From NCBI GenBank assembly GCA_002778465.1, contig PFBV01000002.1:2312-66311 (forward strand): DNA of 64,000 nucleotides, read 5' to 3'. A program made the position numbers and the translations under genes. This document shows positions 2,765 through 64,000 of the stretch, in pieces (within the stretch, counting starts at the first letter, position 1; each line of letters starts with the position of its first letter). The DNA comes from Candidatus Magasanikbacteria bacterium CG10_big_fil_rev_8_21_14_0_10_36_32. GTDB taxonomy: Bacteria; Patescibacteriota; Patescibacteriia; Magasanikbacterales; GWA2-37-8. The notes below the pieces were generated by a model. That model was not told the DNA's origin. It worked only from the letters and a program-made list of their open reading frames with translations, and searched no databases.

Positions 2765-3157
2765 ATGGCGGGTAAAAAATTAAAAGAAGTTTTGTTGGTG
2801 GTGGAAGATGATGAAATTTTGTTGAGAGCGTTATATTTGATGTTTAACAGTGGGAAATATACCATCGCCACAGCCACTGATGGAGAAACAGCTTTGAAAA
2901 TGGCTGAACGGATAAAACCCGATATGGTTTTATTGGATTTATTGATGCCAAAAATGAATGGCTTTGAATTTCTGAAAGTGTTTAAAGCGCATGATGAATT
3001 AAAAAAAATACCAGTGATTGTTTTGTCTAATTTAGGTGACAGTGACAGTAAGGAAAAAGCAAAAGCATTGGGCGCGATTGATTATTTCGTAAAAGCAAAT
3101 ATTAATTTAACTTCATTGGCAGATAAAATTAAACAAATTTTAAGCCAAAAAACATGA
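2765..3157 (+). CDS. Single-domain response regulator receiver
   Basis: ATG at 2765 (the ORF-track start 2756 is TTG and overlaps the upstream stop). VVEDDE, VLLDLLMPKMNG, VLSNL and FVKAN receiver motifs. No output domain. Confidence 0.85.
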   Translation: MAGKKLKEVLLVVEDDEILLRALYLMFNSGKYTIATATDGETALKMAERIKPDMVLLDLLMPKMNGFEFLKVFKAHDELKKIPVIVLSNLGDSDSKEKAKALGAIDYFVKANINLTSLADKIKQILSQKT

Positions 3158-3975
3158 AAATTAAATGGCTCAATTTAGTTCTATGGTTAACGAATAAAGT
3201 TTATACTTTAAAAAAGAACTTGGTTGAGAGGACGGGACTTATTATTATTGTAACAGTGATAAAACTGTTAATTTTGGAAGTTGTATTGGCAATTATTTCA
3301 TTGCCACTTTATTTGGGTCTTAAAACTAAAACAACTGCCGTTTATTTGGCAGAAAAAAGCGGTTTTGGGCAGGTGGCTTTTGATTATCGTTTGCGTCGGC
3401 TGTTAACTTTAACTGGAGTTGGTGTTATTTTTTTAATTTGGACAGTAAAATTAATTTTGATTATTTCCGTACCCCGCGTTTATGGCCAGTTGCAATTATA
3501 CAAAGTCGTGAATTTTCAATCCGGCACGGGCTTGTCGCAACAGTTGATTAAAACTGAAACAGATATCCAAACCGCCAAAATTTCCAATAAAATTATTGTG
3601 CCAGTGATTGAAAATGTCACAAAAACAGGGATGGACAGTTATGCAGTATCCGGCTCAGGACAATCATTTTCCACGGTGGCAGTTATGCTAACCGGACAAC
3701 AAACAATAATTTATACCATTCAAGCTGATAATAATGGTTATTGGACAATGATTCACAATCAAAAGAATTTTAGGCTGAATGATGGAAATCATTCATTATT
3801 AGCGTTTACTTATGATAAAAAAACTGGGCAGCGCAGCGATATTTCTCCGGAACAGTTCTTTAAAGTTAAGACATCATTGATAGATCGTTTAGTGAAAAAC
3901 ATAGATACCCTGACTAATTGGTCGGTGGTTATTGTAATTTTATTGGGATTATTTTTAACCATCCTAACAATATGA
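3154..3975 (+). CDS. Membrane protein with Ig-like beta domain and C-terminal TM anchor; short paralog of the downstream giant protein
   Basis: ATGA overlap with the upstream stop. The N-terminus (IKWLNLVLWLTNKVYTLKKNL ... EVVLAIISLPLYLGL) aligns by eye with the giant protein N-terminus (ISWLKIFFKLSGRIFELKQKL ... EIVFVFISLPLYFAV). The C-terminal part (ADNNGYWTM...LNDGNHSLLAF + TM helix) resembles the giant protein C-terminus (ADNQGNWHV...LSSGEHTVYAV + TM helix). Confidence 0.6.
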   Translation: MKIKWLNLVLWLTNKVYTLKKNLVERTGLIIIVTVIKLLILEVVLAIISLPLYLGLKTKTTAVYLAEKSGFGQVAFDYRLRRLLTLTGVGVIFLIWTVKLILIISVPRVYGQLQLYKVVNFQSGTGLSQQLIKTETDIQTAKISNKIIVPVIENVTKTGMDSYAVSGSGQSFSTVAVMLTGQQTIIYTIQADNNGYWTMIHNQKNFRLNDGNHSLLAFTYDKKTGQRSDISPEQFFKVKTSLIDRLVKNIDTLTNWSVVIVILLGLFLTILTI

Positions 3976-6900
3976 TGATTAGTTGGTTAAAAATATTTTT
4001 TAAACTTTCCGGGCGGATTTTTGAATTGAAACAAAAATTATCCCAAACTGACAGTTGGATAAAATCTTTGCCTTACGCTTTCCTTTTGATTTTAGACGAA
4101 ATAGTTTTTGTTTTTATTTCTTTGCCGTTGTATTTTGCCGTGCCGCCCAAAAAAGTTCAAGAAAAAGGAATTTTATTTCCTTCAGCCGAACCGGAAACCG
4201 AAAGAATGAAAATGTTTTTTATCAGAAGAAAAATAAGTTTAATTGCTTTTATCACCGCATTGGGAATGTTAGTTTTAAAATTTTTGGTAATCGGCGGTAT
4301 TTCTTTTTATTTGATGGGCGGGCAATTGCTTTTGGCTGCCACTCAAGATTGGCTATTTACCGTCCCTGGCGATTATGCTTATGACAGTTCAAAAATTGAA
4401 TTTGTTGGAGGGATTGCCAGATTGAAAAATTTGGGAACAACGGTTACAGGCAGTACCACTAATGCTAATTTTAATACCAATGCTACTGGCTGGACTTATG
4501 CTGATTGGGATCAAGGCGGTGGTGAGGCGAATGTAGTTGGAACTTATGTGGCATCAGGGGGAAATCCAGGCGGATTTGTTCAAATTAATTTTCCAGTTGG
4601 TAAAAGCGATGAGTTTGGCGGATATTGGCGTCAAGGTTTTGCAATCACGGAAAATAATCCAACCGCAACCCTCAGTTTTGATTGGTCAATAACCGCTTTT
4701 GACAATACTCCCGCCCCAGTCACATTTAAACTTTATGCTTTCATAGATACAGGAACAGGTGTTCCGGTTATTGGTCAAGAAGTTTGGAAATCAGAAGAAA
4801 TTACCGCAACAAGCGCTTGGGTTTCTATGACAAATTTAAATATTTCTTCAAAAGTTACGGCCGCTGGCACTTATTATTTAAAAATTGCGGTATGGTTGGA
4901 AACCCCAAATAACAACACAGGTCCTTTTACGCTTGGTTACGATAATGTCATAGTCAATTGGTCAAAAACTACGATTGTTTATGATTCTAATCGTCCGACA
5001 ATTATACCAAACAATTCTTTAACACCGGTCAATCCGGCGATTTGGAGTTCTTTTACAGAAACAGCTACAAAAAACGGAGGAGAAATTTATTATCAGTTAT
5101 CGGCTGATAATGGTTCTACTTGGAACTATTGGAATGGTTCGTCTTGGATATCCGCCGGCGCGTCTAATTATAATACCGCCATTGTTGTTAATAATAATAT
5201 TGCCGGTTTTTCTACCAGCACCAACAAAATAAAATGGAAAGCTTTTTTGGAAAGCAATGGCAGTCAACAAGTTAGTTTAAGCAAGGTTTCCATCGGCTAT
5301 ACGGAAAATTCCGCTCCCAGTATTTCTGAAGTAGTTCCTGTTCAGCAGACAGATAAAGGCCAAGTTTATATTTCTTATAATTTAACTGATGTTGAAAGCG
5401 ACCCCTCCAGTTTAATTACTTATGAATATTCTTTGACGGGCGCTTTTTCCGGGGAACAGGTGACAATGATAGCGTCCACTACTAATCCAATGCACAATGG
5501 TGTGTCCGGTTTGTCGGCTTCTCCGTCTGGCATCTCGCATATTTTTGTTTGGGACGGAATTATTAATTTGCCCAATGTTTACAACACTAGTACTTATGTT
5601 CGTTTGCGCGCCAATGACGGTATCGCAAGTGGTGTTTATGTCACTTCTTCAGCTATTACGATTGATTATGTAGCACCGGTTATTAGTAATTTATCTGTTA
5701 CGCAAAATTCCGGCAGTGCTAATTTTGATATTTCTTATGATTTATTTGATAACACTTCTGATAATATAAATATTGTTTTAGAAATCTCTGATGATGGCGG
5801 TTTGACTTGGGTTGTGCCGACTGTGTCATCAGTCGGAGATTTGGGTTCCAGTGTTACAGCCGGTATCGGAAAAGTAATTACTTGGAATGCCGGAGTTGAT
5901 TATCCGGCTCATCAAGTTTCCAATATGCAAGTTCGTCTTTTGGTTAAAGATAAATATCAAAATCAAAGCGTTTATTTTAATTCAGTCAATTTTGAATTAG
6001 ATACTTTGGCGCCGGTGGCTGCAATTACAGTTGATTTAATGGCTCAGCCAAATGCCGGCGATACCGCAGTTTTAATTTTTGGTTCTTTTATTGAAACAAA
6101 TCCTAATTATAACAATTTTTTTGTTGGAGTAAACAATGGAGATTATGGTTCGGCCACAGTCGGTGATAGTAATACAATTTCTCCTTCTGCCCAGTTGGTT
6201 GCTACCGGTGTAACCTTAACTGGCGCTGATTATATTGGTAAAGCAAAGATTGCTCACACTGATGATTTTGGTTTTTCAACTGATAATGAAAATTTTTCTC
6301 CCAATAGTTCATATAAATATGTAAAACCTTATACTCCACCGGCGCCGACAGTAGGTAATCCGGCAGAAGGGTCGTTAGATGTCACTATCAACAAATATTC
6401 TTCTGAAGCTGATGGATTAGAATATTTAGTTTTTGAGAATACCCAATCAAAATATATTCAAGGCGATGGTTTATTAAGTGATAGTCCTGTTTGGTTGTCA
6501 TCAGGAACAATAACTGTAATCGGCTTGTCTGATCCTTTGTCGCAATATATTTTTAAAACAAAATCTCGCAACAATAGCGATGCGGCACATACTCTAACCA
6601 GTGAGAGTGAATGGTCGTCCGGCGCGTCTACTGATTATCAATCACCATCCGTAACAATCAATTCCGTTGCACAGACTATTAATGGAACTAAATATGTGAC
6701 AGTTGATTATGTTGGTATTGATTTTCAGAATGCTCAGAATAATCTGGTAGTATATGAATATTCCACCGATGGTTTTGGTTGGATGACAATGACGGAAAAA
6801 GTTGGTGTAGATTCCAACGGTGTAAGCGGTTTAAGTTTTTCTTCCGGCGGAACGGCTTTCAAATTCGCGTGGGATGTTGGAAACGATTTGTTTTTAACCG

Positions 6901-9683
6901 AAGATTCCACTGTTTATGTTCGTCTTCAATCCAACGACTCTATTAACAGTAGTAATCTATCTGTTTCGTCCGCTTTTTTTGTGGATACGGCCGGACCAAT
7001 AATTTCCAATATTAATGTTAGTCAAGCAACTTCTTCCAATAATATTATTATTAATTATGATTTAACAGATACTGCCGGAGCTGATAATTTTATTGAATTA
7101 TTAATCTCTGATGATAGTGGCAGTTCTTATGTTGTAAGCGTGTCTGCGGTTACCGGCGACATTGGCGAAGGTGTCAGTTCCGGTATTGGAAAAGAAATTA
7201 TTTGGAACGCTGGGACGGATTTTAACGGACAAGAGCAGTCTGATATGCGGATAAAAATCCGTGCTAAAGATAGATATCAAAATCAGGGAGATTTTACAGA
7301 ATCATCTGATTTTCTTTTAGACACCAAAGGGCCAATTGTTAGTGATGTAAATGCGGTTCAATCAAGCAGTACCGTGTTAATAAATTATACTTTATCTGAA
7401 AATGTCGGTTTAGTTGTGTTTGAGGTGTCTGATGACAGTGGATTAACTTGGGTGGTATCCACCAGCAGTGTCAATGGTGATATTGGCGCCGATCAATTGT
7501 CCGGTTTAAAAAATTTCCAGTGGAATGCCAAAATTAATTTTAATGATCAAGAACAAAACGATGTGATGGTTCGTATTAGGGCAACTGATTATTTTAATAA
7601 TGTGGGCGATTATGTTTCGTCGGCTATTTTTTCTTTAGATACTAAACCTCCGGTTATAAGCAATATTACCGCTAATCAAACTCTGAATACAAAAGATTTT
7701 TCATTTAGTTATGAATTATCCGATGCTTCAGCCACAGCCACCATAGTATTGGATATTTCTTCCAATAGCGGTTTGGATTGGAATGTGGCGACTAGTACTC
7801 TCTCTGGAGATTCGGGAGATAATATTACCATGGGTGTTAAAAGTTTAATTTGGAATGCTGGTACGGATTTCAATGATCAGGAGAGTAATGTTATGCGTTT
7901 ACGTTTTCGTGCCACTGATGCTTGGGGTAATGAAAGTTTATTTTTTGAATCATCCGATTTTTCAGTGGATACAGCCGCTCCATCTGGTTTGTCGGAATTA
8001 ACCAAATATAGCATTACTGCAACTTCAGTGACATTAAATTGGTCATCCGGAGTAAATGATTCAAATTTTAATCATTATGAACTGTGGTATGGCGCGAATC
8101 AAAATGATGTTTTAAACAGAGCTGGTTCTGCGGACAAGTGGGATTCATTGGATGATGTTGATTTGAATAATATTACTACAATTTCTACAATTATTTCAGG
8201 AACAAGTTTTATTACTACTAAATATATAAAAATTTGGGCGGTTGATAATTATGGCAATGAATCATCGGCGCCGGATATTTCAGTAATTTATATTCCGCCG
8301 ACAGTGACCTATGATTTAATAGTGCAGGCGCCTACCGGTTCAGGCTCAATTAATCCGGCAATTGGCACTCATACATATAGTAAAGGAACCAATGTAGAAA
8401 TTACCGCTACTCCGGATAGTGGTTGGAATTTTGGTGGTTGGATTTTGGATGATTTATCAGGAGGCAATACAAATCCATTAACTTTAATAATGAATGCCGC
8501 GCATACAATTGGCGCTGTATTTAGTGAGGAAACCGTATCTGTTCCTGAAAAACAAGCGCCATCAGGCGGCGCGCCATTAGTTGTGATTGAGGCAACAGAT
8601 ACTACTCCGCCAACCGCGCCGATTTTAACGCCGGTTGCCGGACCACTGTCTTCAACCAGGGTAAAAATTTCCGGTTTAGCCGAACCTGGTTCAAAACTTT
8701 TTTTATACGATAAGGAAAGTCTGGTGGGACAATTAAGTTCTTTGGTTGGTAACAATGGAAGATTTGAACAAACTTTTGTTTTTAATGAAGGTGAACATAT
8801 TTTAACTTCCAAGGCGGTTGACACCAAAGGAAATCTTAGTCAGATTTCAGAATCAATTACATTTGTGATTGATTTAACTCCGCCGGATGCGCCGCAAATT
8901 TTATCTCCGAAAGAAAACAGTGTTTTATTGGCTAATGAATTAGTTTTGGTTGGTTTATCCGAACCGTTAACCGTTATGGAAATTAATTTAAGAGAAAATA
9001 TTTACAATACTGTCGCCAACGAAAGAGGAGTTTGGCAATTTAACATCTTTAATGTTACTGAAATTATACAAGGACGCCAGACAGTGACTGTACGAGCTAA
9101 AGATGCGGCTGGAAATATTAGCCGGCCTGTAACTTGGATAGGTACAGTAACAGTAGTCACGACCACTGGTGCTATTTATCCGATTCAAATTTTACCACCG
9201 GAAATAATTTCTCCGACTCCGTTGGCGCCGGCATCAATAATTCGTGAAGTTAACCAAGCAATTGAGACCACAGCTATAACGACTCCGTCAGTGGTCAGTG
9301 TTGAATTTTCCGGAGCCGATGACATTATTAGTTTTGCCGGCAAAGCTAAACCCGATGAAGAAGTGATAATTTATATTCATAGTAATCAGGCGGTAGTTTA
9401 TCGTACTGTGGCGGATAATCAAGGTAATTGGCATGTTCATCATTCACAAAATGAATTGGAATTATCCTCCGGTGAGCACACGGTATATGCGGTTGGCATT
9501 AACAGTGAAACAAATCTTAAAAGTCCGCCAAGTTTGATAGGGACATTTATTATTGAAAAAAATTGGTGGGTTAATATTTATAGGCATTTTAATTTTACCT
9601 CAACTTTAATTACCATTGCTGTTTTATTGATGGTTATGTCGTGGTTGTATTGGTTACGCCGTCGGGAAACAGTTAAAATTTAA
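3972..9683 (+). CDS. Giant (~1,903 aa) membrane-anchored, repeat-rich surface protein (adhesin-like)
   Basis: Likely start is ATG 3972 (ATGA overlap with the upstream stop); the ORF-track start 3918 lies inside the upstream gene. Architecture: two N-terminal TM segments, then a CBM/galactose-binding-like region (WTYADWDQGGG...NVIVNW). About six ~110-aa modules share ISN(L/I)xVxQ...(I/V)SDD(G/S)G(L/S)(T/S)W...(I/F)xWNAGxD...(V/I)R(L/I)xAxD...DTxxP, at nt ~5311-6005 and ~6650-7975. These are followed by an FN3-like domain (VTLNWSS...YELWYG), an InlB-B-repeat-like domain (GWNFGGWILD), Ig-like domains (DTTPPTAP.., DLTPPDAP..) and a C-terminal TM plus basic tail (WLYWLRRRETVKI). Confidence 0.8.
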   Translation: MMISWLKIFFKLSGRIFELKQKLSQTDSWIKSLPYAFLLILDEIVFVFISLPLYFAVPPKKVQEKGILFPSAEPETERMKMFFIRRKISLIAFITALGMLVLKFLVIGGISFYLMGGQLLLAATQDWLFTVPGDYAYDSSKIEFVGGIARLKNLGTTVTGSTTNANFNTNATGWTYADWDQGGGEANVVGTYVASGGNPGGFVQINFPVGKSDEFGGYWRQGFAITENNPTATLSFDWSITAFDNTPAPVTFKLYAFIDTGTGVPVIGQEVWKSEEITATSAWVSMTNLNISSKVTAAGTYYLKIAVWLETPNNNTGPFTLGYDNVIVNWSKTTIVYDSNRPTIIPNNSLTPVNPAIWSSFTETATKNGGEIYYQLSADNGSTWNYWNGSSWISAGASNYNTAIVVNNNIAGFSTSTNKIKWKAFLESNGSQQVSLSKVSIGYTENSAPSISEVVPVQQTDKGQVYISYNLTDVESDPSSLITYEYSLTGAFSGEQVTMIASTTNPMHNGVSGLSASPSGISHIFVWDGIINLPNVYNTSTYVRLRANDGIASGVYVTSSAITIDYVAPVISNLSVTQNSGSANFDISYDLFDNTSDNINIVLEISDDGGLTWVVPTVSSVGDLGSSVTAGIGKVITWNAGVDYPAHQVSNMQVRLLVKDKYQNQSVYFNSVNFELDTLAPVAAITVDLMAQPNAGDTAVLIFGSFIETNPNYNNFFVGVNNGDYGSATVGDSNTISPSAQLVATGVTLTGADYIGKAKIAHTDDFGFSTDNENFSPNSSYKYVKPYTPPAPTVGNPAEGSLDVTINKYSSEADGLEYLVFENTQSKYIQGDGLLSDSPVWLSSGTITVIGLSDPLSQYIFKTKSRNNSDAAHTLTSESEWSSGASTDYQSPSVTINSVAQTINGTKYVTVDYVGIDFQNAQNNLVVYEYSTDGFGWMTMTEKVGVDSNGVSGLSFSSGGTAFKFAWDVGNDLFLTEDSTVYVRLQSNDSINSSNLSVSSAFFVDTAGPIISNINVSQATSSNNIIINYDLTDTAGADNFIELLISDDSGSSYVVSVSAVTGDIGEGVSSGIGKEIIWNAGTDFNGQEQSDMRIKIRAKDRYQNQGDFTESSDFLLDTKGPIVSDVNAVQSSSTVLINYTLSENVGLVVFEVSDDSGLTWVVSTSSVNGDIGADQLSGLKNFQWNAKINFNDQEQNDVMVRIRATDYFNNVGDYVSSAIFSLDTKPPVISNITANQTLNTKDFSFSYELSDASATATIVLDISSNSGLDWNVATSTLSGDSGDNITMGVKSLIWNAGTDFNDQESNVMRLRFRATDAWGNESLFFESSDFSVDTAAPSGLSELTKYSITATSVTLNWSSGVNDSNFNHYELWYGANQNDVLNRAGSADKWDSLDDVDLNNITTISTIISGTSFITTKYIKIWAVDNYGNESSAPDISVIYIPPTVTYDLIVQAPTGSGSINPAIGTHTYSKGTNVEITATPDSGWNFGGWILDDLSGGNTNPLTLIMNAAHTIGAVFSEETVSVPEKQAPSGGAPLVVIEATDTTPPTAPILTPVAGPLSSTRVKISGLAEPGSKLFLYDKESLVGQLSSLVGNNGRFEQTFVFNEGEHILTSKAVDTKGNLSQISESITFVIDLTPPDAPQILSPKENSVLLANELVLVGLSEPLTVMEINLRENIYNTVANERGVWQFNIFNVTEIIQGRQTVTVRAKDAAGNISRPVTWIGTVTVVTTTGAIYPIQILPPEIISPTPLAPASIIREVNQAIETTAITTPSVVSVEFSGADDIISFAGKAKPDEEVIIYIHSNQAVVYRTVADNQGNWHVHHSQNELELSSGEHTVYAVGINSETNLKSPPSLIGTFIIEKNWWVNIYRHFNFTSTLITIAVLLMVMSWLYWLRRRETVKI

Positions 9684-36222: not shown

Positions 36223-36747
36223 TCAAGCGTAACCTGACTGAATCAGATTGCCATTGGATAGTATAGTCGCTATCAGCCAGCCGCAACTGCCGGTTTTTAC
36301 CAGTGGCAGATTCTTTCCTTGATAATCTCCCTTGAGAAAAGCGAGAGTGCCGTTTCCGGTAAAGTTTACCACGCACATATTTCCGATTTCCGGAGTGATT
36401 GTGACGGTCATCACCATGGTAGTTTCAGTGTTGTACCAGTCGCCGGCGATATGTGTCAGCTCATTGCAACTAGCAGGATCAATGAAAACCAGTTTGGACA
36501 ATTCCGTGTCCATCACACTGTTTTCCGGCTCGGTAATGATTGGCGGCAGATTGAGATCTGAATCGCCGTTCATTTCTGAATCGCCGTATTCATCCATCAA
36601 TTCGCCACCATCAATGTCTTCGTCATAAGGATAACATCCAGATGTTATAACGGCGAACAAGAGCATTACAGCAATGGCTATAATTGCAATGACAATTGTG
36701 GCAACCGCTCCTACTGTAACATGGGAATCATAATGTAAATTTCTCAC
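36223..36747 (-). CDS. Small putative lipoprotein, atypically GC-rich
   Basis: GTG start preceded by AAGGAGG. TM/signal segment ending in the lipobox-like AVITSGC. Acidic linker, then a beta-rich domain. A hand-counted 60-nt sample (36241-36300) has 28 G+C (47%). Confidence 0.55.
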   Translation of the reverse strand: MRNLHYDSHVTVGAVATIVIAIIAIAVMLLFAVITSGCYPYDEDIDGGELMDEYGDSEMNGDSDLNLPPIITEPENSVMDTELSKLVFIDPASCNELTHIAGDWYNTETTMVMTVTITPEIGNMCVVNFTGNGTLAFLKGDYQGKNLPLVKTGSCGWLIATILSNGNLIQSGYA

Positions 36748-47104: not shown

Positions 47105-47131
47105 CCAGCTGTTTTTAACAGCTGGCTTTTT
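47105..47131 (+). terminator. Rho-independent terminator
   Basis: CCAGCTG-tttttaa-CAGCTGG followed by CTTTTT. Confidence 0.65.
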
Positions 47132-47160
47132 AAATACCCATTTAAACGGGTATTTAAATA
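47130..47160. repeat. TTAAATACCCATTTAAAcGGGTATTTAAA palindrome (family also at 61888-61917 and 20451-20478)
   Basis: Near-perfect 30-bp palindrome. An almost identical copy (T instead of C at the centre) is at 61888-61917. Confidence 0.8.
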
Positions 47161-47180
47161 CGAGATGATTTGTTCAGTGT

Positions 47181-47209
47181 TTGACTTTTCAATTTATTTT
47201 TGCTATTAT
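47181..47209 (+). promoter_or_regulatory. Sigma70-like promoter positioned as for a tRNA gene
   Basis: TTGACT, 17 nt spacer, TATTAT. The -10 ends 12 nt before the GGAGAGG of the tRNA 5' fragment. Confidence 0.5.
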
Positions 47210-47221
47210 TATCCGAGAATT

Positions 47222-47273
47222 GGAGAGGTGGCTTCTGAGCTCCTGCCTGCCGGTAGGCAGGGGTCGAAAGCGG
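47222..47273 (+). pseudogene. Duplicated 5' portion (nt 1-29) of tRNA-Ser(GCU), interrupted by 3-nt and 20-nt insertions
   Basis: GGAGAGGTGGCT|tct|GAGCT|CCTGCCTGCCGGTAGGCAGG|GGTCGAAAGCGG compared with the tRNA 5' end GGAGAGGTGGCTGAGCTGGTCGAAAGCGG at 47529-47557. All 29 shared nt are identical. Confidence 0.7.
47242..47261. repeat. 20-bp GC-rich palindrome CCTGCCTGCCGGtAGGCAGG (second copy at 53222-53241)
   Basis: One mismatch from a perfect palindrome. The perfect copy CCTGCCTGCCGGCAGGCAGG is at 53222-53241. GC content contrasts strongly with the background. Confidence 0.8.
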
Positions 47274-47528
47274 TAATAAAATTTATGTATTGCGTGTATT
47301 TTTTACAAAGTCTGAAAGATAAAGGTTTGTACATCGGAAAAACGAATAATATTAAACGTCGGTTATCTGAACACAACGCCGGTAAAGTTCAATCGACAAA
47401 AAGTAGAAAACCTTTTATTTTGTTGGGATTAGAAAAATACCAAACAGAAAAAGAATGTTTGGCGGCAGAATTAGAATGGAAAAAAGGATATAAACGCGAA
47501 CAATTAAAAGTTAGATATAGTCTATAAT
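47274..47528 (+). mobile_element. GIY-YIG cassette lying between the tRNA-Ser 5' duplicate and the intact tRNA-Ser
   Basis: The cassette is bounded by 29-nt direct repeats (the tRNA 5' part). It contains only the 80-aa GIY-YIG ORF, whose stop is 1 nt from tRNA position 1. Confidence 0.45.
47285..47527 (+). CDS. Small GIY-YIG nuclease-superfamily protein (paralog of 14865-15125)
   Basis: MYCVYFLQSLKDKGLYIGKTNNIKRRLSEHNAGKV...KPFILL. The start is taken at ATG 47285 because the longer track ORF (47165) reads through the tRNA fragment and the palindrome. Confidence 0.75.
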   Translation: MYCVYFLQSLKDKGLYIGKTNNIKRRLSEHNAGKVQSTKSRKPFILLGLEKYQTEKECLAAELEWKKGYKREQLKVRYSL

Positions 47529-47624
<96 letters not shown>

Positions 47625-55740: not shown

Positions 55741-58700
55741 ATGTATTTAAAGCGTTTAGAAATTCAAGGTTTTAAGTCCTTTGCCAGCAGGACTGTTTTA
55801 GAATTTTTACCGCCTAAAAATGGAAGTTTAGGAGTAACGGCAGTAGTCGGTCCTAACGGTTCAGGTAAATCAAATATTTCCGATGCTATTCGTTGGGCGA
55901 TGGGTGAACAGAGTTTAAAAGTTTTGCGCGGGAAAAAAAGTGACGATGTTATTTTTAATGGTTCGGAAACAAAAAGCCGGTTGGGTATGGCTGAAGTTTC
56001 TTTGATTTTAGACAATACCGACGGAAAAATTTATAAAGAATATCCCGAGATAATAATTACTCGTCGTGTTTATCGCCAAGGCGAAGGAGAATATTTGATT
56101 AATAATAATGCGGCTCGGCTTTTTGATATTCATTTGGTTTTAGCGCAGTTGCAATGCGCTGGAAATTCATATGGTATTGTTGGACAAGGTATGATTGATC
56201 AAATGTTAGTTGCTACGCCGGCTGAGCGCAAAGAATTTTTAGATGAAGCTTCGGGAATTAAAGAATTTCAAATTAAACGCCATCAAGCCGCTTTGAAATT
56301 GAATCGGACTTCGGAAAATATTATTCAAGCTGAACGGTTGATACAGGAAGTTGAACCAAGATTAAGATTATTGTCACGCCAAGTTAAAAAATTGGAAAAA
56401 CGGCAAGAAGTGGAGTTGCAGTTAAGAGAGTCTCAGGAAAAATATTTTAATTCAATCTTTCATCGCAATAAAAATGAAGCCGATGAGATTAGTACTGCTT
56501 TGTCGGCGGTGGAAAAGAAATATGAAGTGGCTAAACAAGAATTGGAGAAAATTCAAAATGAATTAAGCCAGCATGCTCGGGCGGCCGGACGGCAGGAAGT
56601 TTTTGCCGGTTTGCAGGATGATTATCGTATCGCTCAACATGAAAAAAATGAATTAGCGAGGCAAATGATGATGTTGGAAGGGCAAATGCATACTGAATAT
56701 AGTCAGCGCGGACAGCAAAATATCGGTTGGTTGGAAAATAAAATTAATGATTTAAAATTTCAAACTGAAAAAATATCCGGTCAATGTCGTTCTTTGGAAG
56801 AGGAAAATAAAAAAATCAATGAAGAATTGACTCAACAACGGAAGAAGTTGGATAAAATGTCATCTGATAAAGCGGAAAAAATGGTTAAAATTTCGCGTTG
56901 GCAAAATCAGTTGATGGAAGGACAATCAGAACAGAATTTTTTGCAGTTAAGCGGTTTAACCACTATTAAATCAATTTTGGAAGCCAAAGGCAGTTTAGGA
57001 AAAATTTATGGCGTGGTGGCCAGTTTGGCTGAAGCAGATTTACAATATTGTTTGGCTTTGGATGTGGCTGCCGGTTCACGCCTTTCGTCCATCGTGGTTG
57101 ATGATGACGAAGTTGCTCGTTTGGCGATTAATTATTTGCGTGAAAAAAGATTGGGTGTGGCAACATTTTTACCGTTAAATAAAATTACTGAAAGAGAATT
57201 GTCGCCGGAAATGGAGATTTTAAAGAAAGAGCCGGATGTCGTCGGCTGGGCGATTGATTTATTAAAATTTGAAAATAAATTTAGGAATATTTTTTCTTTT
57301 ATTTTGGGAGATACATTGGTTGTAAAAGATTTACAGGCGGCTAAGCGTATTGGTATTGGCCGAATTAGGATGGTGACATTGGAAGGTGATTTGGTGGAAA
57401 GAAATGGCGTAATGAGAGGCGGTTATCGACAATTTAAAAAATACAGCCTTAGTTTCGCCGCTAAATTTTCTTTAAGCAGCGAGGATAGAATGAAAGAATA
57501 TCAAACACAGCTAACTTTGGAACAGCAGGGATTGTTGGAAATTGATAGAGAAATGGATGTTGTAAAACGCGCTATTGGAGAAAGTGAAGCTCAGAATCAG
57601 GCGAAACGAGCCAAGCTTGATTTGTTGAATGAAGAAATTCAAAAAAATGATAAGGAAAAATCATCTTTGGAACGCGATTTGTCACTTTTACAATTAACAC
57701 CGGAAGAGCATGGTGAACATTTGGTTAAGTTGGCTGGCGATAAAGAAAAATTAATGAAAGAAATTGGACAAGCTGACCAAAAATTGGCGGAATTGGATAA
57801 AAAAATAAGCGAATTTAATGAAGATGAAGAAAAGAAAAAACAGCGTGTTTTTTCTTTGCAAAATGAAATGAATTCCAAACAAGATGAATTAAATCATTTA
57901 ACTTCCGATCGCAATGATTATCGTGTGGCTTTGGCAAAAATTGAAACAAAGCAGGAAGCTTTGAACGAAGAAGTGAATACTGATTTAAATACTTCCATAA
58001 TGTCTATCGTGGAACGCAATTTGGAAATTGTTCCGACAGCGCAATTGGAAGAATTGGCCGCTGAATTGCAAAAATTAAAATATCAGCTAAGTTTAATTGG
58101 CAGTATTGATGAAGAAGTAATTCAAGAACATGAGCAAACAAAAGAAAGATATGATTTTCTGTCTAATCAGTTGATTGATTTAAAAACCGCGATTGAAAAT
58201 TTGGAAAAAATGGTGGAAGATTTGGATGATTTGATGAAAACAAAACGAGCGGTGGCTTTCAAAAAAATTAGAAAAGAATTTGATCGTTATTTTAAAATTT
58301 TGTTTGAAGGCGGCAGCGCGAATTTGGAAGAAATTTATACGGAAGAAAAAGATGAAGAATTGGAGATTGGTAATGAAGGAGAAATGGAAATTCCTCCGGA
58401 AATTCCGACGTCAAGAAAGAAAGAAAAAGTGTTGGTTGGAATTGATGTTTTGGCTAATCCGCCGGGTAAGAAAATTAAAAGTATAAATGCGTTATCTGGA
58501 GGAGAACGCACTTTAACCTCAATCGCTTTAATTTGCGCCGTGTTGAATTATAATCCGTCACCATTTGTTGTTTTGGATGAAGTGGAAGCGGCTTTGGATG
58601 AAGCTAACACCCTGCGGTTTACTAAGATTTTGGCGGAATTGGCGACTAAATCTCAATTCATTATTATTACTCATAATCGCGTCACTATGCATTCTGCTGA

Positions 58701-58788
58701 TGCGCTTTATGGTGTGACAATGAGCAGTGAAGGTATTTCCAGATTGTTAAGTGTGAAGATGGAAGATGTACCGCAATATTCCAAATAG
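55741..58788 (+). CDS. smc: Chromosome partition protein SMC (short, 1,015 aa)
   Basis: N-terminal Walker A GPNGSGKSN, long coiled coils, a hinge (GVVASLAE..LDVAAGSRL), the signature LSGGERTLTSIAL, and Walker B VLDEVEAALD. Confidence 0.9.
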   Translation: MYLKRLEIQGFKSFASRTVLEFLPPKNGSLGVTAVVGPNGSGKSNISDAIRWAMGEQSLKVLRGKKSDDVIFNGSETKSRLGMAEVSLILDNTDGKIYKEYPEIIITRRVYRQGEGEYLINNNAARLFDIHLVLAQLQCAGNSYGIVGQGMIDQMLVATPAERKEFLDEASGIKEFQIKRHQAALKLNRTSENIIQAERLIQEVEPRLRLLSRQVKKLEKRQEVELQLRESQEKYFNSIFHRNKNEADEISTALSAVEKKYEVAKQELEKIQNELSQHARAAGRQEVFAGLQDDYRIAQHEKNELARQMMMLEGQMHTEYSQRGQQNIGWLENKINDLKFQTEKISGQCRSLEEENKKINEELTQQRKKLDKMSSDKAEKMVKISRWQNQLMEGQSEQNFLQLSGLTTIKSILEAKGSLGKIYGVVASLAEADLQYCLALDVAAGSRLSSIVVDDDEVARLAINYLREKRLGVATFLPLNKITERELSPEMEILKKEPDVVGWAIDLLKFENKFRNIFSFILGDTLVVKDLQAAKRIGIGRIRMVTLEGDLVERNGVMRGGYRQFKKYSLSFAAKFSLSSEDRMKEYQTQLTLEQQGLLEIDREMDVVKRAIGESEAQNQAKRAKLDLLNEEIQKNDKEKSSLERDLSLLQLTPEEHGEHLVKLAGDKEKLMKEIGQADQKLAELDKKISEFNEDEEKKKQRVFSLQNEMNSKQDELNHLTSDRNDYRVALAKIETKQEALNEEVNTDLNTSIMSIVERNLEIVPTAQLEELAAELQKLKYQLSLIGSIDEEVIQEHEQTKERYDFLSNQLIDLKTAIENLEKMVEDLDDLMKTKRAVAFKKIRKEFDRYFKILFEGGSANLEEIYTEEKDEELEIGNEGEMEIPPEIPTSRKKEKVLVGIDVLANPPGKKIKSINALSGGERTLTSIALICAVLNYNPSPFVVLDEVEAALDEANTLRFTKILAELATKSQFIIITHNRVTMHSADALYGVTMSSEGISRLLSVKMEDVPQYSK

Positions 58789-60106: not shown

Positions 60107-60135
60107 TTGACAGCAGTTTTTAAATATGATATATT
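60107..60135 (+). promoter_or_regulatory. Consensus-like promoter of rpsP
   Basis: TTGACA, 17 nt spacer, TATATT. The 3' part AAATATGATATATTG is identical to the promoter at 61196. Confidence 0.55.
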
Positions 60136-60246: not shown

Positions 60247-60723
60247 ATGCTAATTATTCGCATGCAACGGGTAGGCAAGAAGAAATTCTCTACTTACCGT
60301 TTAATTATTTCTGAAAAAACAAAAGATACGCAAGGATCTTATTTAGAGGCCTTGGGTACTTTTAATCCGCACGCCAAAGAAAATGCTTTTAAGCCTAATA
60401 TTGAAAGAATTAAATATTGGTTAAGTAAAGGCGCTTTAGTTTCGGATACTTTGAATAATTTGTTGATTTCCAACAATATTATTGAAGGTGATAAAAAGAA
60501 ATCAGTTTTTTTAACAAAAAAAAGACAGGTTAAATTAGCTGAAAAAAAGAAAGCGGTCACTCCCGCTCCAGTTGAAACTCCTGCCGAAACTCCAGTTGAA
60601 ACTTCAGTTGAACAACCAATTGCTCCTGTTGAAACTCCTGCCGAAACTCCAGTTGAAACTTCAGTTGAACAACCAATTGCTCCTGTTGAAACTCCTGCCG
60701 AAACTCCGACTGAGCAGGTTTAA
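60247..60723 (+). CDS. rpsP: 30S ribosomal protein S16 with a repeat-containing C-terminal extension
   Basis: MLIIRMQRVGKKKFSTYRLIISE...GTFNP...IERIKYWLSKGA is the bS16 core (~85 aa). It is followed by a ~70-aa P/E/T/V-rich tail. Confidence 0.9.
   Translation: MLIIRMQRVGKKKFSTYRLIISEKTKDTQGSYLEALGTFNPHAKENAFKPNIERIKYWLSKGALVSDTLNNLLISNNIIEGDKKKSVFLTKKRQVKLAEKKKAVTPAPVETPAETPVETSVEQPIAPVETPAETPVETSVEQPIAPVETPAETPTEQV
60565..60707 (+). repeat. 57-bp tandem repeat, 2.5 copies, in frame in the rpsP tail
   Basis: Units start at 60565, 60622 and 60679. Copies 1 and 2 differ at one nucleotide. Each encodes APVETPAETPVETSVEQPI. Confidence 0.9.
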
Positions 60724-60800: not shown

Positions 60801-61136
60801 ATGACGAACGCAGATCAGCAATTTCTGGAAACACTCGTTAAAGCGGTTGTTAACAACCCGAACGACGTAAAAGTTGACAGAGTGGTTGATGAAAGAGGAG
60901 TTTTACTTACTCTGGATGTCAATCCGCAAGATATGGGTTATATTATTGGTCGACAAGGCCAAACTGCCCATGCGATTCGTACCTTGTTGAAAATCGTCGG
61001 TGCCAAAAATAATGCCCGCGTTAATTTAAAAATTAACGAACCGGCTGGTAGTGAGCACAGACGCAGAGAAGACAGAGGTCCGGTCGAGACTAGCGCCCCG
61101 GTAGATACCAGCGCCATTGATAACTTGGAAATCTAA
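60801..61136 (+). CDS. KH-domain RNA-binding protein (YlqC/UPF0109 family)
   Basis: ATG at 60801. FLETLVKAVVNNPNDVKV...GYIIGRQGQTAHAIRTLLK (GxxG KH motif). Canonical position after rpsP. Confidence 0.8.
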   Translation: MTNADQQFLETLVKAVVNNPNDVKVDRVVDERGVLLTLDVNPQDMGYIIGRQGQTAHAIRTLLKIVGAKNNARVNLKINEPAGSEHRRREDRGPVETSAPVDTSAIDNLEI

Positions 61137-61148
61137 AATTAAAATTTA

Positions 61149-61186
61149 AAATCGCCTCCGCAAATGCGGAGGCGATTTTGTTTTTA
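61149..61186 (+). terminator. Strong rho-independent terminator
   Basis: AAATCGCCTCCGC-aaat-GCGGAGGCGATTT followed by TGTTTTT. Confidence 0.8.
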
Positions 61187-61195
61187 TTTAAAATC

Positions 61196-61224
61196 TTGAC
61201 AAAAGCTTTAAAATATGATATATT
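61196..61224 (+). promoter_or_regulatory. Consensus-like promoter (twin of the rpsP promoter)
   Basis: TTGACA, 17 nt spacer, TATATT. Confidence 0.55.
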
Positions 61225-61286
61225 GATTTGTTCTTTAAAAAACAACCAAGTCCTGTAAAAAAACAGGCAAAACAAGGAGAAGAGAG

Positions 61287-61820
61287 ATGAAGAAGGGAAT
61301 GTTTTTCGTTTTGTTCGTATTCGCGATTCTGTCCGTTTCCGCTTGTGGTAGCGCGCAGTTTCAGAACGTTGCGGATGATAATCCGATAACGGACCAGACC
61401 TGTACAGTCATCGTGGATCGTACCCAGTCGCTGGATGAGATGATTCAGGCGGGGCGGTACAGTTTCGTTTCTGATTACTTTACCGCTGAGAATTTCCCGG
61501 TAGAGCAGCCGCAGGTGGAGGTGGAGGTAACACTTCACGTCATCACCATGAATAGGGTGGTTACCACCAATGCAATTTTGGCTGAAATTGATAAGCGTGG
61601 TTTGCGTCCGGCGACCTTGTCGGAGCTATTGGCTTTCGGAGTCAAGTATCCGTCGGCCCAAAGACATTTTTCGGTCGTCGCTTTCGGTTCGATTTGGTCA
61701 ATTAGCGGTTTTCGTGTAGTGACCTTTCTGTCCGGTGACGATGATATTCGGGCGCTGAACATGGATTATTTTGGTGGTGATTGGGACGAAGCCACCCGTT
61801 TCCTTGCCGTCGTCAAGTAA
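61287..61820 (+). CDS. Putative lipoprotein, strongly GC-enriched
   Basis: AAGGAG RBS. Signal peptide plus lipobox (FAILSVSAC). A hand-counted 60-nt sample (61321-61380) has 32 G+C (53%), versus 19 (32%) in an rpsP sample (60301-60360). Confidence 0.6.
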   Translation: MKKGMFFVLFVFAILSVSACGSAQFQNVADDNPITDQTCTVIVDRTQSLDEMIQAGRYSFVSDYFTAENFPVEQPQVEVEVTLHVITMNRVVTTNAILAEIDKRGLRPATLSELLAFGVKYPSAQRHFSVVAFGSIWSISGFRVVTFLSGDDDIRALNMDYFGGDWDEATRFLAVVK

Positions 61821-61845
61821 ATCCCGTTCTTTTTTCAACATACAG

Positions 61846-61872
61846 CCACCTCAGTTCTTGAGGTGGTTTTTT
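61846..61872 (+). terminator. Rho-independent terminator
   Basis: CCACCTCA-gttct-TGAGGTGG followed by TTTTTT. Confidence 0.75.
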
Positions 61873-61887
61873 ATTGGATAGAGTTTT

Positions 61888-61917
61888 TTTAAATACCCAT
61901 TTAAATGGGTATTTAAA
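61888..61917. repeat. TTTAAATACCCATTTAAATGGGTATTTAAA perfect palindrome
   Basis: Second copy of the 47130-47160 element, flanked by a T-run and an A-run. Confidence 0.8.
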
Positions 61918-61946
61918 AAAATATATAGTTCTTATTTTTTTATTTA

Positions 61947-61975
61947 TTGACAGTAATTTTATTTTATTGTATATA
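61947..61975 (+). promoter_or_regulatory. Sigma70-like promoter
   Basis: TTGACA, 17 nt spacer, TATATA. Confidence 0.5.
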
Positions 61976-62031
61976 TACAGAATACTGTTCTTTTAAATCA
62001 ATCGGCCTAAGGGTCAAAAAAGGAGGTCCAA

Positions 62032-62667
62032 ATGGGCACAAAGGGAAGATTTTTGACGATTTTTGTTACATCGATTTTTCTCATGTTGGCCATTTTTACC
62101 GCCGGCTGCGCTGTTTTTTCGTCACAGGTGAAGGATGTTAAATCAGAAGATCCGAACAGAGCGCTGTTCAATCATTGGCATGCGATTTGTTTGAATGTTG
62201 ATGATGAAGAAGTTGATCATTTTGCGGCAGAGGAAATGTCCAAATTGACAGAACCTTTTTATGACGACTGGTTGTCTATTTTCATGTGTGCTCAATCCAA
62301 GAGTGATTTGAGCTATAAATCTTTGGCATGGGCAGGTCAGTTGTCATCAAAATTTTCTGAGATGAAAATTGTGGCACAGCTTGTATATTGGAAGAAAATA
62401 ACCGATGATGATGAACGTCTTCAAAAAATATTTCAGTATACACTATACAAAATGTACTGGGAGGCGGAGAGTTTTAAGGAGTGGGCTGTTGTAACTAAAT
62501 TTGCCAATTGTGAAACGTATAATGATTTATTTCTAGAGTCGCTGAGTCGTATGGCTAGTTTGGCCAATACTTTCAAGGAATGGAAATGTGTCTATGATAT
62601 TGCTCCTAAGGATAACGCGATTCGCAAGATTGCTTTTTACAGAATGATTGGGATGGTCAAACCGTAA
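62032..62667 (+). CDS. Putative lipoprotein (helical, unknown function)
   Basis: AAAGGAGG RBS. Signal peptide plus lipobox (LAIFTAGC). Confidence 0.55.
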   Translation: MGTKGRFLTIFVTSIFLMLAIFTAGCAVFSSQVKDVKSEDPNRALFNHWHAICLNVDDEEVDHFAAEEMSKLTEPFYDDWLSIFMCAQSKSDLSYKSLAWAGQLSSKFSEMKIVAQLVYWKKITDDDERLQKIFQYTLYKMYWEAESFKEWAVVTKFANCETYNDLFLESLSRMASLANTFKEWKCVYDIAPKDNAIRKIAFYRMIGMVKP

Positions 62668-62736
62668 GGGCAGTTTAATTCGCAAGTTTGCGCTTACGAG
62701 ACGATTGAGATAATTCGTTCTTTTTAAAAAAAATTT

Positions 62737-62763
62737 ACCCCGACTTTAAGTCGGGGTTTTTAT
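62737..62763 (+). terminator. Rho-independent terminator
   Basis: ACCCCGAC-tttaa-GTCGGGGT followed by TTTTAT. Confidence 0.7.
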
Positions 62764-62828: not shown

Positions 62829-63494
62829 ATGCGTTTTGATATCTTAACTTTATTTCCAGATATTGTTCACAGCTATGGCAGTGAGAGTATTTTAAAGCGG
62901 GCGCAAAAAGCCGGCTTTATTAAAATTGCGGCGCATAATTTTAGAGATTATACCAAAGATAAACAGTGGCATGTTGATGATAAACCATATGGCGGCGGAG
63001 CCGGGATGGTTCTTCAAGTCCAACCGATTTGGGATTGTTTGAAAAATATTAAAGCATTAAAAAATAAAAAAACAAAAACATCAAAACAAAAAACGAAGAT
63101 TATTATTTTAGATCCGGCGGGAAAAAAGTTTAACCAAAGAATGGCGGAGAAATTATCCAAGCTGGACAGAGTGATTTTAATTTGCGGACGCTATGAAGGT
63201 TTTGATGAAAGAATTTATAAATTGGCTGATGAAAAAGTGTCGGTAGGCGATTATGTTTTGTCCGGCGGAGAATTGCCGGCGCTGGTAATTGTTGAGGCAG
63301 TGTCGCGGCTCATTCCTGGCGTGTTGGGAAATGAGGAATCACTGTTGAATGAAACATTTGGAAAAGGTAAATATCCGGTTTATACTCGTCCGGAAAATTT
63401 TATGGGTCAAAAAGTGCCAAAAATTCTTCTTTCAGGCGACCATAAAAAGATTAAAGAATGGCGTCAAAAAATGGCTAAGATTATCCACAAGTAA
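62829..63494 (+). CDS. trmD: tRNA (guanine37-N1)-methyltransferase
   Basis: MRFDILTLFPD, DDKPYGGGAGMV, LICGRYEGFDERI and SVGDYVLSGGELPA are TrmD motifs. Confidence 0.92.
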   Translation: MRFDILTLFPDIVHSYGSESILKRAQKAGFIKIAAHNFRDYTKDKQWHVDDKPYGGGAGMVLQVQPIWDCLKNIKALKNKKTKTSKQKTKIIILDPAGKKFNQRMAEKLSKLDRVILICGRYEGFDERIYKLADEKVSVGDYVLSGGELPALVIVEAVSRLIPGVLGNEESLLNETFGKGKYPVYTRPENFMGQKVPKILLSGDHKKIKEWRQKMAKIIHK

Positions 63495-63499
63495 AGCCC

Positions 63500-63528
63500 T
63501 TGACATATAATTTGTTTTGTGTTATTCT
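63500..63528 (+). promoter_or_regulatory. rRNA operon promoter candidate P1
   Basis: TTGACA, 17 nt spacer, TATTCT with TGn upstream. A weaker second candidate is TTGACA-N17-ACTAAT at 63684-63712. Confidence 0.4.
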
Positions 63529-63808
63529 TGTAGGGTTAAATTTAAAAAACGACCTTCACCTTTCAATATCCACAACTAAAATTTTTCTAAGTCCGCGCAG
63601 GAAACTGGAAAGAAAAAAGAGCAACTGATATTTCGGTTTCTCTTTTTTCTTTCTAAGGTGTAGAAAGTTAGAAAGAAAGTACTTTGACAACATGAATATG
63701 GCAAAAACTAATGAAGCCTAATTTTATATTCCTTTATAACATTGTAAATCCAAATTTGTTTTTGTTTCGTCATGCTTCGGTATGACCACCAAAAACAAAC
63801 TTCAAACT

Positions 63809-64000
63809 TATATTAAGAGTTTGATCCTAGCTCAGGATGAACGCTGGCGGCGTGTCTAAGGCATGCAAGTCGAGCGACGTGTTCCCCGCAAGGGGAATTA
63901 CGAGCGGCAAACGGGTGAGTAACACATTGGTAACCTACCTCTAAGTCGGGGATAGCCTGCCGAAAGGCGGATTAATACCCGATAGTAACGCGGGGGCAAA
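63809..64000 (+). rRNA. rrs: 16S rRNA, 5' ~190 nt (continues beyond the window; 5' end approximate)
   Basis: AGAGTTTGATCCTAGCTCAGGATGAACGCTGGCGGCGTG...GCAAGTCGAGCG...GGGTGAGTAACAC matches the universal 16S 5' domain (27F site at 63816). Confidence 0.92.

Follow-up and report, generated by a model that had tools for sequence, protein, structure and literature searches.

The window analysed here is a 64-kb stretch of a Candidatus Magasanikbacteria genome, a member of the candidate phyla radiation (CPR; Patescibacteria) assembled from metagenomes of the CG10 (Crystal Geyser) series, and it was inspected together with 5.6 kb of downstream sequence taken from L173. At its right end, smc, a gene for a 372-aa hypothetical protein, rpsP, a KH-domain gene, two open reading frames (ORFs), trmD and the 16S ribosomal RNA (rRNA) gene follow one another, all on the + strand. 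Our subject is the two ORFs between the KH gene and trmD, here called ORF1 and ORF2. An earlier note on this DNA had described them as self-contained units, each with its own promoter, Shine–Dalgarno sequence, lipobox and terminator, and all of these elements could be located (GC3 is the GC content at third codon positions):

61196–61224, + strand: ORF1 promoter, TTGACA-N17-TATATT, score 11/12, with an upstream TG
61274–61279, + strand: ORF1 Shine–Dalgarno sequence, AAGGAG
61287–61820, + strand: ORF1 coding sequence, 177 aa (COU29_00650, PIT88744.1), GC 0.498, GC3 0.573
61287–61346, + strand: predicted ORF1 signal peptide and lipobox, LSVSA-C20, with weak NCBIfam matches to lipoprotein N-terminal models
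61389–61817, + strand: conserved family domain (aa 35–177), predicted to be C-type-lectin-like, per-residue confidence >90 through most of it
61680–61817, + strand: variable-repeat-equivalent segment (aa 132–177, AFGSIWSISGFRVVTFLSGDDDIRALNMDYFGGDWDEATRFLAVVK), third-position A 0.06
61844–61868, + strand: ORF1 terminator, a GC-rich hairpin and T-run, 24 nt after the stop codon
61884–61921, no strand: palindrome of two perfect 17-nt arms around a 4-nt centre, TTTTTTAAATACCCATT TAAA TGGGTATTTAAAAAA
61947–61975, + strand: ORF2 promoter, TTGACA-N17-TATATA, the sole such site in the window
62020–62026, + strand: ORF2 Shine–Dalgarno sequence, AAGGAGG
62032–62667, + strand: ORF2 coding sequence, 211 aa (COU29_00655, PIT88745.1), GC3 0.406 (z = 1.4)
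62737–62757, + strand: ORF2 terminator

The ORF1 protein begins with MKKGMFFVLFVFAILSVSAC and carries the lipobox VSAC with its cysteine at position 20; the sequence MKKGMFFVLFVFAILSVSA-C20 fits the strict lipobox consensus [LVI][ASTVI][GAS]C. Judged by sequence, ORF1 would be a lipid-anchored protein on the outer face of the membrane. Its promoter appears to be strong, native in type and housekeeping-like, and perfect matches to TTGACA-N14-TGATATATT occur in the 64 kb only at the promoters of rpsP and ORF1 (0.45 expected). Searches of Pfam, NCBIfam, PHROGs, PADLOC and PDB sequences gave nothing meaningful for ORF1, and the assignment of either ORF1 or ORF2 to a known family was rejected on these searches. 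The AlphaFold2 model of ORF1 has a mean predicted local distance difference test score (pLDDT) of 87, and its top Foldseek matches are mostly C-type lectin domains, none of them significant. According to the model, the C-terminal domain of ~140 aa is predicted to have a C-type-lectin-like fold.

The ORF1 family and diversity-generating retroelements

A single-sequence search retrieved 28 unannotated homologues of ORF1 at 35–49% identity, the best of them only 44–46% identical and on a contig of 955 bp, and a profile search extended the family to at least 1016 proteins. The few members that carry an organism name come, with one exception (a 'Deltaproteobacteria' metagenome-assembled genome), from Patescibacteria or Magasanikbacteria, and no Pfam domain was found in the members listed with organism names. 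The family has in common the C-terminal domain of ~140 aa, with the motifs MIxAGxYDW, GLRPATLxELLAFG and, at the very end, RFLAVRK, and its N-termini vary: a lipobox is present in about 3 of 130 full-length members, the rest having a helical N-domain of ~60 aa without a signal peptide. No family member was found in the viral contigs of IMG/VR, and the neighbours of family genes in nine loci are unrelated housekeeping genes; the idea that ORF1 is phage or mobile-element cargo was rejected on these two results.

Variable proteins of diversity-generating retroelements (DGRs) are classically built on a C-type-lectin fold, and template repeats were therefore sought in 80 metagenome loci fetched with the ORF1-family profile. 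Many of these loci contain a second copy of the last ~45 codons, located 300–400 nt 3' of the family gene, and the translation of this template repeat is rich in asparagine (for example, ...NGNRNVAYLN.D..ERNLNLNWFDN.WNDNYRFLAVRN). When 14 pairs of variable and template repeats were aligned as DNA, mismatches fell on 252 of 475 template adenines, compared with 8 of 534 cytosines, 1 of 497 guanines and 7 of 391 thymines (16 of 1422 for these three bases together). The homology between the repeats stops at most 7 nt from the stop codon, the variable repeat being the last ~135 nt. The template repeat is adjoined by genes for an RVT_1 reverse transcriptase and, in opposite orientation, bAvd. Both were confirmed by Pfam in L125, L143, L137 and L172, and hidden Markov models (HMMs) derived from the family detected a reverse transcriptase or Avd in 23–26 of the fetched loci. 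The cassette thus runs from the target gene with its variable repeat through ~300 nt to the template repeat, avd (−) and the reverse transcriptase gene (+). In such a cassette, template-repeat adenines would be copied in an error-prone manner into the variable repeat, and the ligand-binding face of the protein would thereby be rewritten. From these sequence features, we regard the ORF1 family as a family of DGR variable (target) proteins.

Solitary copies are the majority of the family, roughly 60–75% where enough flank is available. Among 46 distinct full-length genes with at least 1.5 kb downstream, 12 have a template repeat and 16–17 have Avd or a reverse transcriptase nearby, and 6 of the 22 genes with at least 3 kb on both sides are DGR-linked. 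DGR-linked and solitary genes alike (L094–L172 and L001–L092) are followed in most cases by a (T/C)CTTGG array of 3–6 repeats, ~8–9 nt apart, directly 3' of the variable repeat or stop codon. CTTGG occurs on average 1.8 times in the 80 nt that follow the variable repeat; the corresponding mean for the template repeat is 0.00, and the background is ~0.1 per 70 nt. Some contigs hold two family members: in L085, two genes (6001–6564 and 7938–8549) lie 1.4 kb apart with near-identical 3' flanks containing CTTGG arrays, and further pairs occur on contigs of 906 kb (P0082, P0135), 9.7 kb (P0100, P0111) and 15 kb (P0146, P0154).

The ORF1 copy in the window retains the scaffold residues and a variable-repeat-like C-terminus (aa 132–177). 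At the positions that are asparagine in the translated template repeats, it has S, F, V, S, A, N, D, G, D and A, and some scaffold positions have drifted relative to the family consensus and the translated template repeats; examples are Y in place of W and V in place of R. HMMs of the 23–26 family-linked DGR reverse transcriptase and Avd genes had no match at E ≤ 10 in the window, which also contains no ORF with a YxDD motif and no direct repeat involving ORF1; an active DGR within the window was rejected on these results. Repeat search and BLAST found no template repeat for 61660–61870 within the window or the 5.6 kb beyond its end. DGR machinery is thus absent from the 61 kb upstream and the 5.6 kb downstream of ORF1 (~67 kb), and no CTTGG copy follows the gene. 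DGR targets bear a hairpin or cruciform at a position like that of the ORF1 terminator (PMC3240598); a hairpin is present 3' of ORF1 at 61844–61868, and an initiation-of-mutagenic-homing site is definable only with a template repeat. With the DGR components (template repeat, Avd and reverse transcriptase) missing from its surroundings and no CTTGG array, ORF1 is most likely a fixed ('fossil') DGR target, or at best a remote one, and its variable repeat would be inactive. Its N-terminal sequence suggests that ORF1 has been re-fitted as a lipoprotein and may represent a rare lipoprotein-anchored variant of the family.

It is unlikely that ORF1 is an active remote target, with 61680–61817 still diversified in trans from elsewhere in the genome. 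In other DGR lineages, targets more than 100 kb from their reverse transcriptase are documented (PMC5758913), and metagenome surveys overlook remote targets (PMC8144416); moreover, ORF1 has kept the ...RFLAV(V/R)K end, the GC-rich hairpin downstream and a low frequency of third-position A in the variable-repeat segment, all of which are compatible with continued diversification. The missing CTTGG array (mean of 1.8 per 80 nt in DGR-linked relatives) and the drift of the variable-repeat scaffold, however, point to a fixed target, as does the identity of the recovered ORF1 copies across the gene in three assemblies, which is weak evidence because all three are from the same strain.

Base composition of ORF1 and its family

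The GC-richness that the earlier note found striking in ORF1 is borne out over the whole gene: among the 47 ORFs of the window (mean GC3 0.324, standard deviation 0.058), ORF1 ranks first with z = 4.3. Its synonymous codons are foreign to the genome, with AAG in 5 of 5 cases (21% in neighbouring genes), GAG in 6 of 8 (16%), ACC in 9 of 12 (10%) and TTA in 0 of 12 (36%).

The same note had read this composition as the mark of a higher-GC donor, for which it suggested the host organism as a possibility; this reading is not supported. All 45 of 45 ORF1-family genes compared are GC-richer than their flanks, by a mean of +0.12 for solitary and +0.14 for DGR-linked genes, across flanking GC contents of ~0.25 to 0.64; in the extreme case, another family gene from Magasanikbacteria, GC3 reaches 0.88 at a locus GC of 0.36. 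The rise is limited to the coding sequence. In the DGR-linked cassettes, which comprised 16 target genes, the reverse transcriptase and Avd genes (14 and 12 cases, respectively) differ from their flanks by about −0.04, and the target genes reach a GC3 of ~0.7, as against ~0.4 for the reverse transcriptase and Avd genes beside them. Had a GC-rich donor passed on the cassette as a whole, such a contrast inside one cassette could not have arisen, and because the excess is family-wide, composition cannot identify a donor. High GC is a property of the ORF1 family and probably not a donor or host signature.

A narrower version of the donor idea, in which ORF1 was recently transferred from a GC-richer CPR lineage and the family excess reflects repeated transfers, has more in its favour and is still somewhat unlikely. 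The GC3 of ORF1 lies below the family value of ~0.7, as it would for an ameliorating import; family genes stand in differing genomic contexts, each solitary; and GC deviation was taken as evidence of transfer for ~20% of DGRs in PMC5758913. Repeated transfer does not sit well, however, with an excess of the same sign in every gene over so wide a range of flanking GC, with cassettes in which the target alone is GC-rich and its co-evolving reverse transcriptase and Avd genes are host-like, or with a rise confined to coding sequence behind a native-type promoter near-identical to that of rpsP. On the reading that high GC is intrinsic to the family, the lower GC3 of ORF1 would reflect a slow drift towards host composition.

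Within the target genes, the variable repeat has a third-position A frequency of 0.03, the remaining part of the domain one of 0.14 and the N-terminal region one of 0.17; the values for the cassettes' reverse transcriptase and Avd genes are 0.25 and 0.32. Adenine is avoided in the variable repeat because invariant codons there must be A-free. A-specific avoidance over the whole gene was rejected, being confined to the variable repeat (A3 0.03, T3 0.24), upstream of which A3 and T3 drop together. Translational selection was also rejected: high expression is to be expected of rpsP, whose GC3 is the lowest (0.233), and ORF1 favours G-ending codons for Lys, Glu and Gln. The GC-rich target coding sequence and the CTTGG array could serve target recognition or could shield the gene from off-target adenine mutagenesis, a possible source of which would be cDNA extending from the template repeat back into the co-transcribed target mRNA.

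DGRs in CPR bacteria, targets with a C-type-lectin fold, remote or unlinked targets and DGR-diversified lipoproteins are kinds already known. The GC3 excess limited to the target gene and the CTTGG array at the variable-repeat flank may be new; neither a target-restricted GC3 excess nor CTTGG arrays turned up when PMC8144416 and PMC5758913 were searched by keyword.

One further gene of the window deserves mention here. The ORF at 36223–36747 (−), one of only four minus-strand ORFs in the window, encodes a small predicted lipoprotein (...LLFAVITSG-C) and is the second GC-richest ORF (GC3 0.463, z 2.4). Together with ORF1, ORF2 and a paralogue of ORF2 described below, it suggests a class of GC-rich small lipoprotein genes in this genome.

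The KH–trmD spacer and ORF2

The genes rpsP, KH, rimM, trmD and rplS form a strongly conserved bacterial cluster, and in many bacteria the gene for RimM, a 16S rRNA processing protein with a PRC-barrel, has trmD on one side and the KH gene or rpsP on the other. On the premise of this cluster, the earlier note proposed that the lipoprotein genes had replaced or displaced rimM. The genes and signals around them are as follows:

55741–58788, + strand: smc, followed by the gene for the 372-aa hypothetical protein
60107–60135, + strand: rpsP promoter, with TTGACA-N14-TGATATATT in common with the ORF1 promoter
60247–60723, + strand: rpsP (S16), Pfam E 1e-14, NCBIfam E 7.5e-19
60801–61136, + strand: KH gene of the KhpA type, longest ORF from 60759, KH_KhpA-B match E 1e-22
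61147–61180, + strand: intrinsic terminator closing the rpsP–KH unit, 15 pairs and then a T-run
62829–63494, + strand: trmD, TrmD match E 1e-83
63809–64000, + strand: 5' end of the 16S rRNA gene, downstream of trmD

For comparison, 80 genomic loci encoding TrmD relatives were fetched, and 30 RimM genes that directly precede trmD in Firmicutes and further phyla served to build a RimM HMM. This model matched in 30 of the 80 loci, each time abutting trmD and in none of the CPR loci, so that rimM beside trmD was absent from every CPR locus sampled. It had no match at E ≤ 1 anywhere in the 64-kb window, in agreement with the observation of the earlier note that no RimM-like ORF is present. Pfam and NCBIfam found no RimM or PRC domain in ORF1 or ORF2, and the predicted folds are C-type-lectin-like and all-helical instead of a PRC-barrel; that either protein is a RimM in disguise was rejected on the HMM and the folds. 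The two proteins resemble RimM in genomic position only, and differ from it in sequence, in fold and in bearing export signals, RimM itself being absent from the clade. Published surveys agree: RimM is 'missing in most CPR genomes' (Méheust et al. 2019, PMC6744442), as was also reported in PMC12641178.

The arrangement in the relatives that have this interval is:

L005 (Magasanikiibacteriota, TrmD 77% identical, the closest relative): smc–rpsP–KH, 311 bp, trmD–16S
L006 (TrmD 70% identical): KH, a 1044-aa gene unrelated to ORF1 and ORF2, trmD
L007 (CPR relative): KH, 109 bp, trmD
L013 (Falkowbacteria): KH, 150 bp, trmD
L052 (Azambacteria): KH, 66 bp, trmD

Both ORF1 and ORF2 are absent from the spacer in L005, L007, L013 and L052, and tblastn detected no trace of either in that of L005. 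The ancestral order in the clade is rpsP–KH, a short spacer, trmD and 16S, without rimM, and ORF1 and ORF2 are a lineage-specific insertion into the short KH–trmD spacer, not a replacement of rimM. With short rimM-free spacers in CPR relatives and a published absence of RimM, there was therefore no rimM to displace. The apparent disruption of the cluster is ordinary, as rimM is missing across CPR.

That acquired lipoprotein genes displaced rimM and came from a higher-GC donor, possibly the host organism, is consequently extremely improbable. The absence of both genes from the closest relative, the foreign codon usage of ORF1 and the lack of RimM in the window agree with it, but it is contradicted by the rimM-free CPR loci and the published near-absence, by a family-wide GC excess that is not shared by the host-like reverse transcriptase and Avd genes in the cassettes, by named family members that are mostly Patescibacteria and by the absence of the family from viral contigs; in addition, ORF2 has a paralogue in the same genome. 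Of the horizontal acquisition that the earlier note proposed, what stands is the absence of the genes from the slot in relatives; no close homologue was found in an identifiable donor lineage.

It is likewise very unlikely that both genes were ancestral at this slot in Magasanikbacteria and were lost in L005, L007 and other relatives. L006 also has an insert between KH and trmD, and an ORF2-family gene lies beside KH–trmD in the CPR contig L177; however, the L006 insert is unrelated to ORF1 and ORF2, the spacer is short in four CPR relatives from three lineages, and the L005 spacer is free of either gene. The L006 insert (2780–5914) encodes a Thr/Ser/Gly/Asn-rich repeat protein with a hydrophobic N-terminal segment and host-like GC, and genes for surface proteins may have landed in the KH–trmD spacer repeatedly. 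In L177 (5001–7960), an unrelated low-GC contig, the ORF2-family gene (467 aa) is convergent to smc–KH–trmD, and trmD follows KH after 35 bp without rimM. The L005 spacer (5745–5975) contains a GC-rich stretch (0.58) of ~200 nt whose fold is stabler than that of shuffled sequence (z −3.35, + strand). This stretch matches nothing in Rfam and resembles neither ORF1 nor the window; that it is an ORF1 remnant was rejected, the tblastn search being empty.

The strong terminator that the earlier note placed after KH lies at 61147–61180, and a hairpin and T-run are found immediately 3' of KH in L005 and L006 too. The note was also right that trmD is followed by the rRNA gene and not by rplS (63495–63808 is the trmD–16S gap); trmD–16S linkage without adjacent rplS is common to the window, L005 and L006 and is therefore a clade feature. 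In L173, the next called gene starts ~500 nt past the expected 16S end, and the rRNA genes may thus be unlinked. The C-terminal tail of rpsP is encoded by 57-nt tandem repeats (PVETPAETPVETSVEQPIA; 60553–60678), whose copy number varies between assemblies of one strain (158 aa in the window, 139 aa in L173). Rfam gave only sub-threshold matches in the region, all to terminator hairpins, and a structured RNA was rejected for that reason.

ORF2 has the lipobox TAGC with Cys26 (...FLMLAIFTAG-C26) and weak matches to NCBIfam lipoprotein N-terminal models. A word-indexed search with ORF2 found only itself, and phmmer against 1.8 billion cluster representatives found 29 weak relatives with multi-segment matches, several of which have a lipobox or a transmembrane N-terminus. 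The protein has an internal repeat of ~35–40 aa (..A..KM..LA.SF.EW..V..) and no Pfam family, and its single-sequence model is all-helical, with pLDDT 66 overall and 76–94 in the C-terminal half. A paralogue, COU29_03790, 27% identical, lies elsewhere in the genome near smpB and infC, with GC 0.479 at a locus GC of 0.362 and GC3 0.588. Its sequence and model suggest that ORF2 is a lipoprotein of alpha-helical hairpin repeats belonging to a small CPR family, and it would act as a surface scaffold or binding protein, lipid-anchored on the outer face of the membrane. It resembles TPR, HEAT and designed-solenoid-like proteins in its helical hairpins of ~35–40 aa, with weak Foldseek matches to designed repeats, TPR and 14-3-3, and differs from them in lacking any significant sequence or structure match (E > 0.04). 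No ORF2-like gene was found near ~90 other ORF1-family loci, so ORF1 and ORF2 are independent, and the view of them as a conserved pair was rejected.

The palindrome between the two genes, TTTAAATACCCATTTAAA(T/C)GGGTATTTAAA, occurs twice in the window (47127–47160 and 61884–61921; 0 expected), each time in the short gap between a terminator and the small accessory gene downstream of it, namely a GIY-YIG-like ORF (47165–47527) and ORF2; it is possibly a shared operator or an insertion junction. The GIY-YIG-like ORF lies directly upstream of a tRNA gene (47529–47621), a partial duplicate of whose 5' end (GGAGAGGTGGCT...GGTCGAAAGCGG) is found at ~47222–47275, and the region 47165–47621 looks like a mobile insertion at a tRNA gene.

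Known systems and biological meaning

Taken as a whole, it is quite probable that ORF1 and ORF2 entered this spacer by insertion, that ORF1 is a DGR-family gene that is now a fossil or remote target, that its GC content is a family-wide trait and that ORF2 is unrelated to it. Several points weigh against this interpretation. The variable repeat of the window yields only short alignments with foreign template repeats, at 59–72% identity, and is too diverged from those available for a test of A mismatches at the DNA level; a DGR outside the 64 kb and 5.6 kb might possibly act in trans. Loss of ORF1 and ORF2 in the relatives is a possible, less parsimonious alternative to gain. Avoidance of A accounts for the variable repeat only and leaves the enrichment of the whole gene unexplained. 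The lipoprotein status of both proteins is a prediction from motifs; a looser lipobox consensus admits Thr at −3, and ORF2, with Thr at this position, fits only that consensus. Finally, as few members have a predicted signal peptide, surface display would be no general property of the ORF1 family.

The nearest known counterparts of ORF1 are Mtd of a Bordetella phage, TvpA of Treponema and TaqVP of Thermus. Like ORF1 as predicted, they have a C-type-lectin-like fold, a C-terminal variable segment that extends up to the stop codon and a GC-rich hairpin downstream of the coding sequence, and their systems have adenine-specific template/variable repeat pairs, bAvd and a reverse transcriptase in common with the homologues of ORF1. 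In contrast, Pfam and PDB searches found no similarity between them and ORF1, whose domain of ~140 aa is much smaller, and ORF1 is without the template repeat, Avd and reverse transcriptase in its ~67 kb. A further parallel is LdtA of Legionella pneumophila, a surface lipoprotein diversified by a DGR (Arambula et al. 2013, cited in PMC11661182). LdtA resembles ORF1 in combining an N-terminal lipoprotein signal and lipobox with a C-terminal variable region of the C-type-lectin type, and by analogy both would be expected to have a lipid-anchored binding role at the surface. Unlike the solitary ORF1, however, LdtA belongs to an active DGR cassette that is carried by a mobile island; the two have no detectable sequence homology, and they may differ in cell envelope (that of CPR in the case of ORF1) and export route. 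The cassettes of L094–L172 resemble the Patescibacteria-restricted DGR clade 2 (Roux et al. 2021, PMC8144416) and the 'CPR set' (Wu et al. 2018, PMC5758913) in being cellular, in coming from groundwater and sediment metagenomes and in having one small target with no assigned function.

Following these analogies, ORF1 would be a surface binding or adhesion protein, and it may bind its ligand via the face formed by residues 132–177, as in Mtd, TvpA and LdtA. More generally, more than 1000 metagenomic proteins hitherto called 'hypothetical protein' now have a label as DGR variable proteins of C-type-lectin fold, and the solitary members of this family would escape reverse transcriptase-adjacent detection as it is described by Roux et al. 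(PMC8144416). The sharp GC3 island in this low-GC symbiont genome also illustrates that such an island need not signal a donor; here it is intrinsic to the family.

We tentatively suggest, as a rather doubtful scenario, that ORF1 is a decommissioned target that has lost its array, has acquired a housekeeping-type promoter as well as a lipoprotein signal, and drifts in composition towards the host. If this is true, ORF1 would offer a dated snapshot of how a hypervariable gene becomes domesticated, with a fixed surface protein as the outcome. The presumed lifestyle of CPR bacteria is attachment to host cells, and a formerly hypervariable lectin-fold lipoprotein with a ribosomal-protein-like promoter is a candidate host-attachment factor. 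ORF1 and ORF2 may thus contribute to the cell-surface interactions of the host-attached CPR lifestyle.

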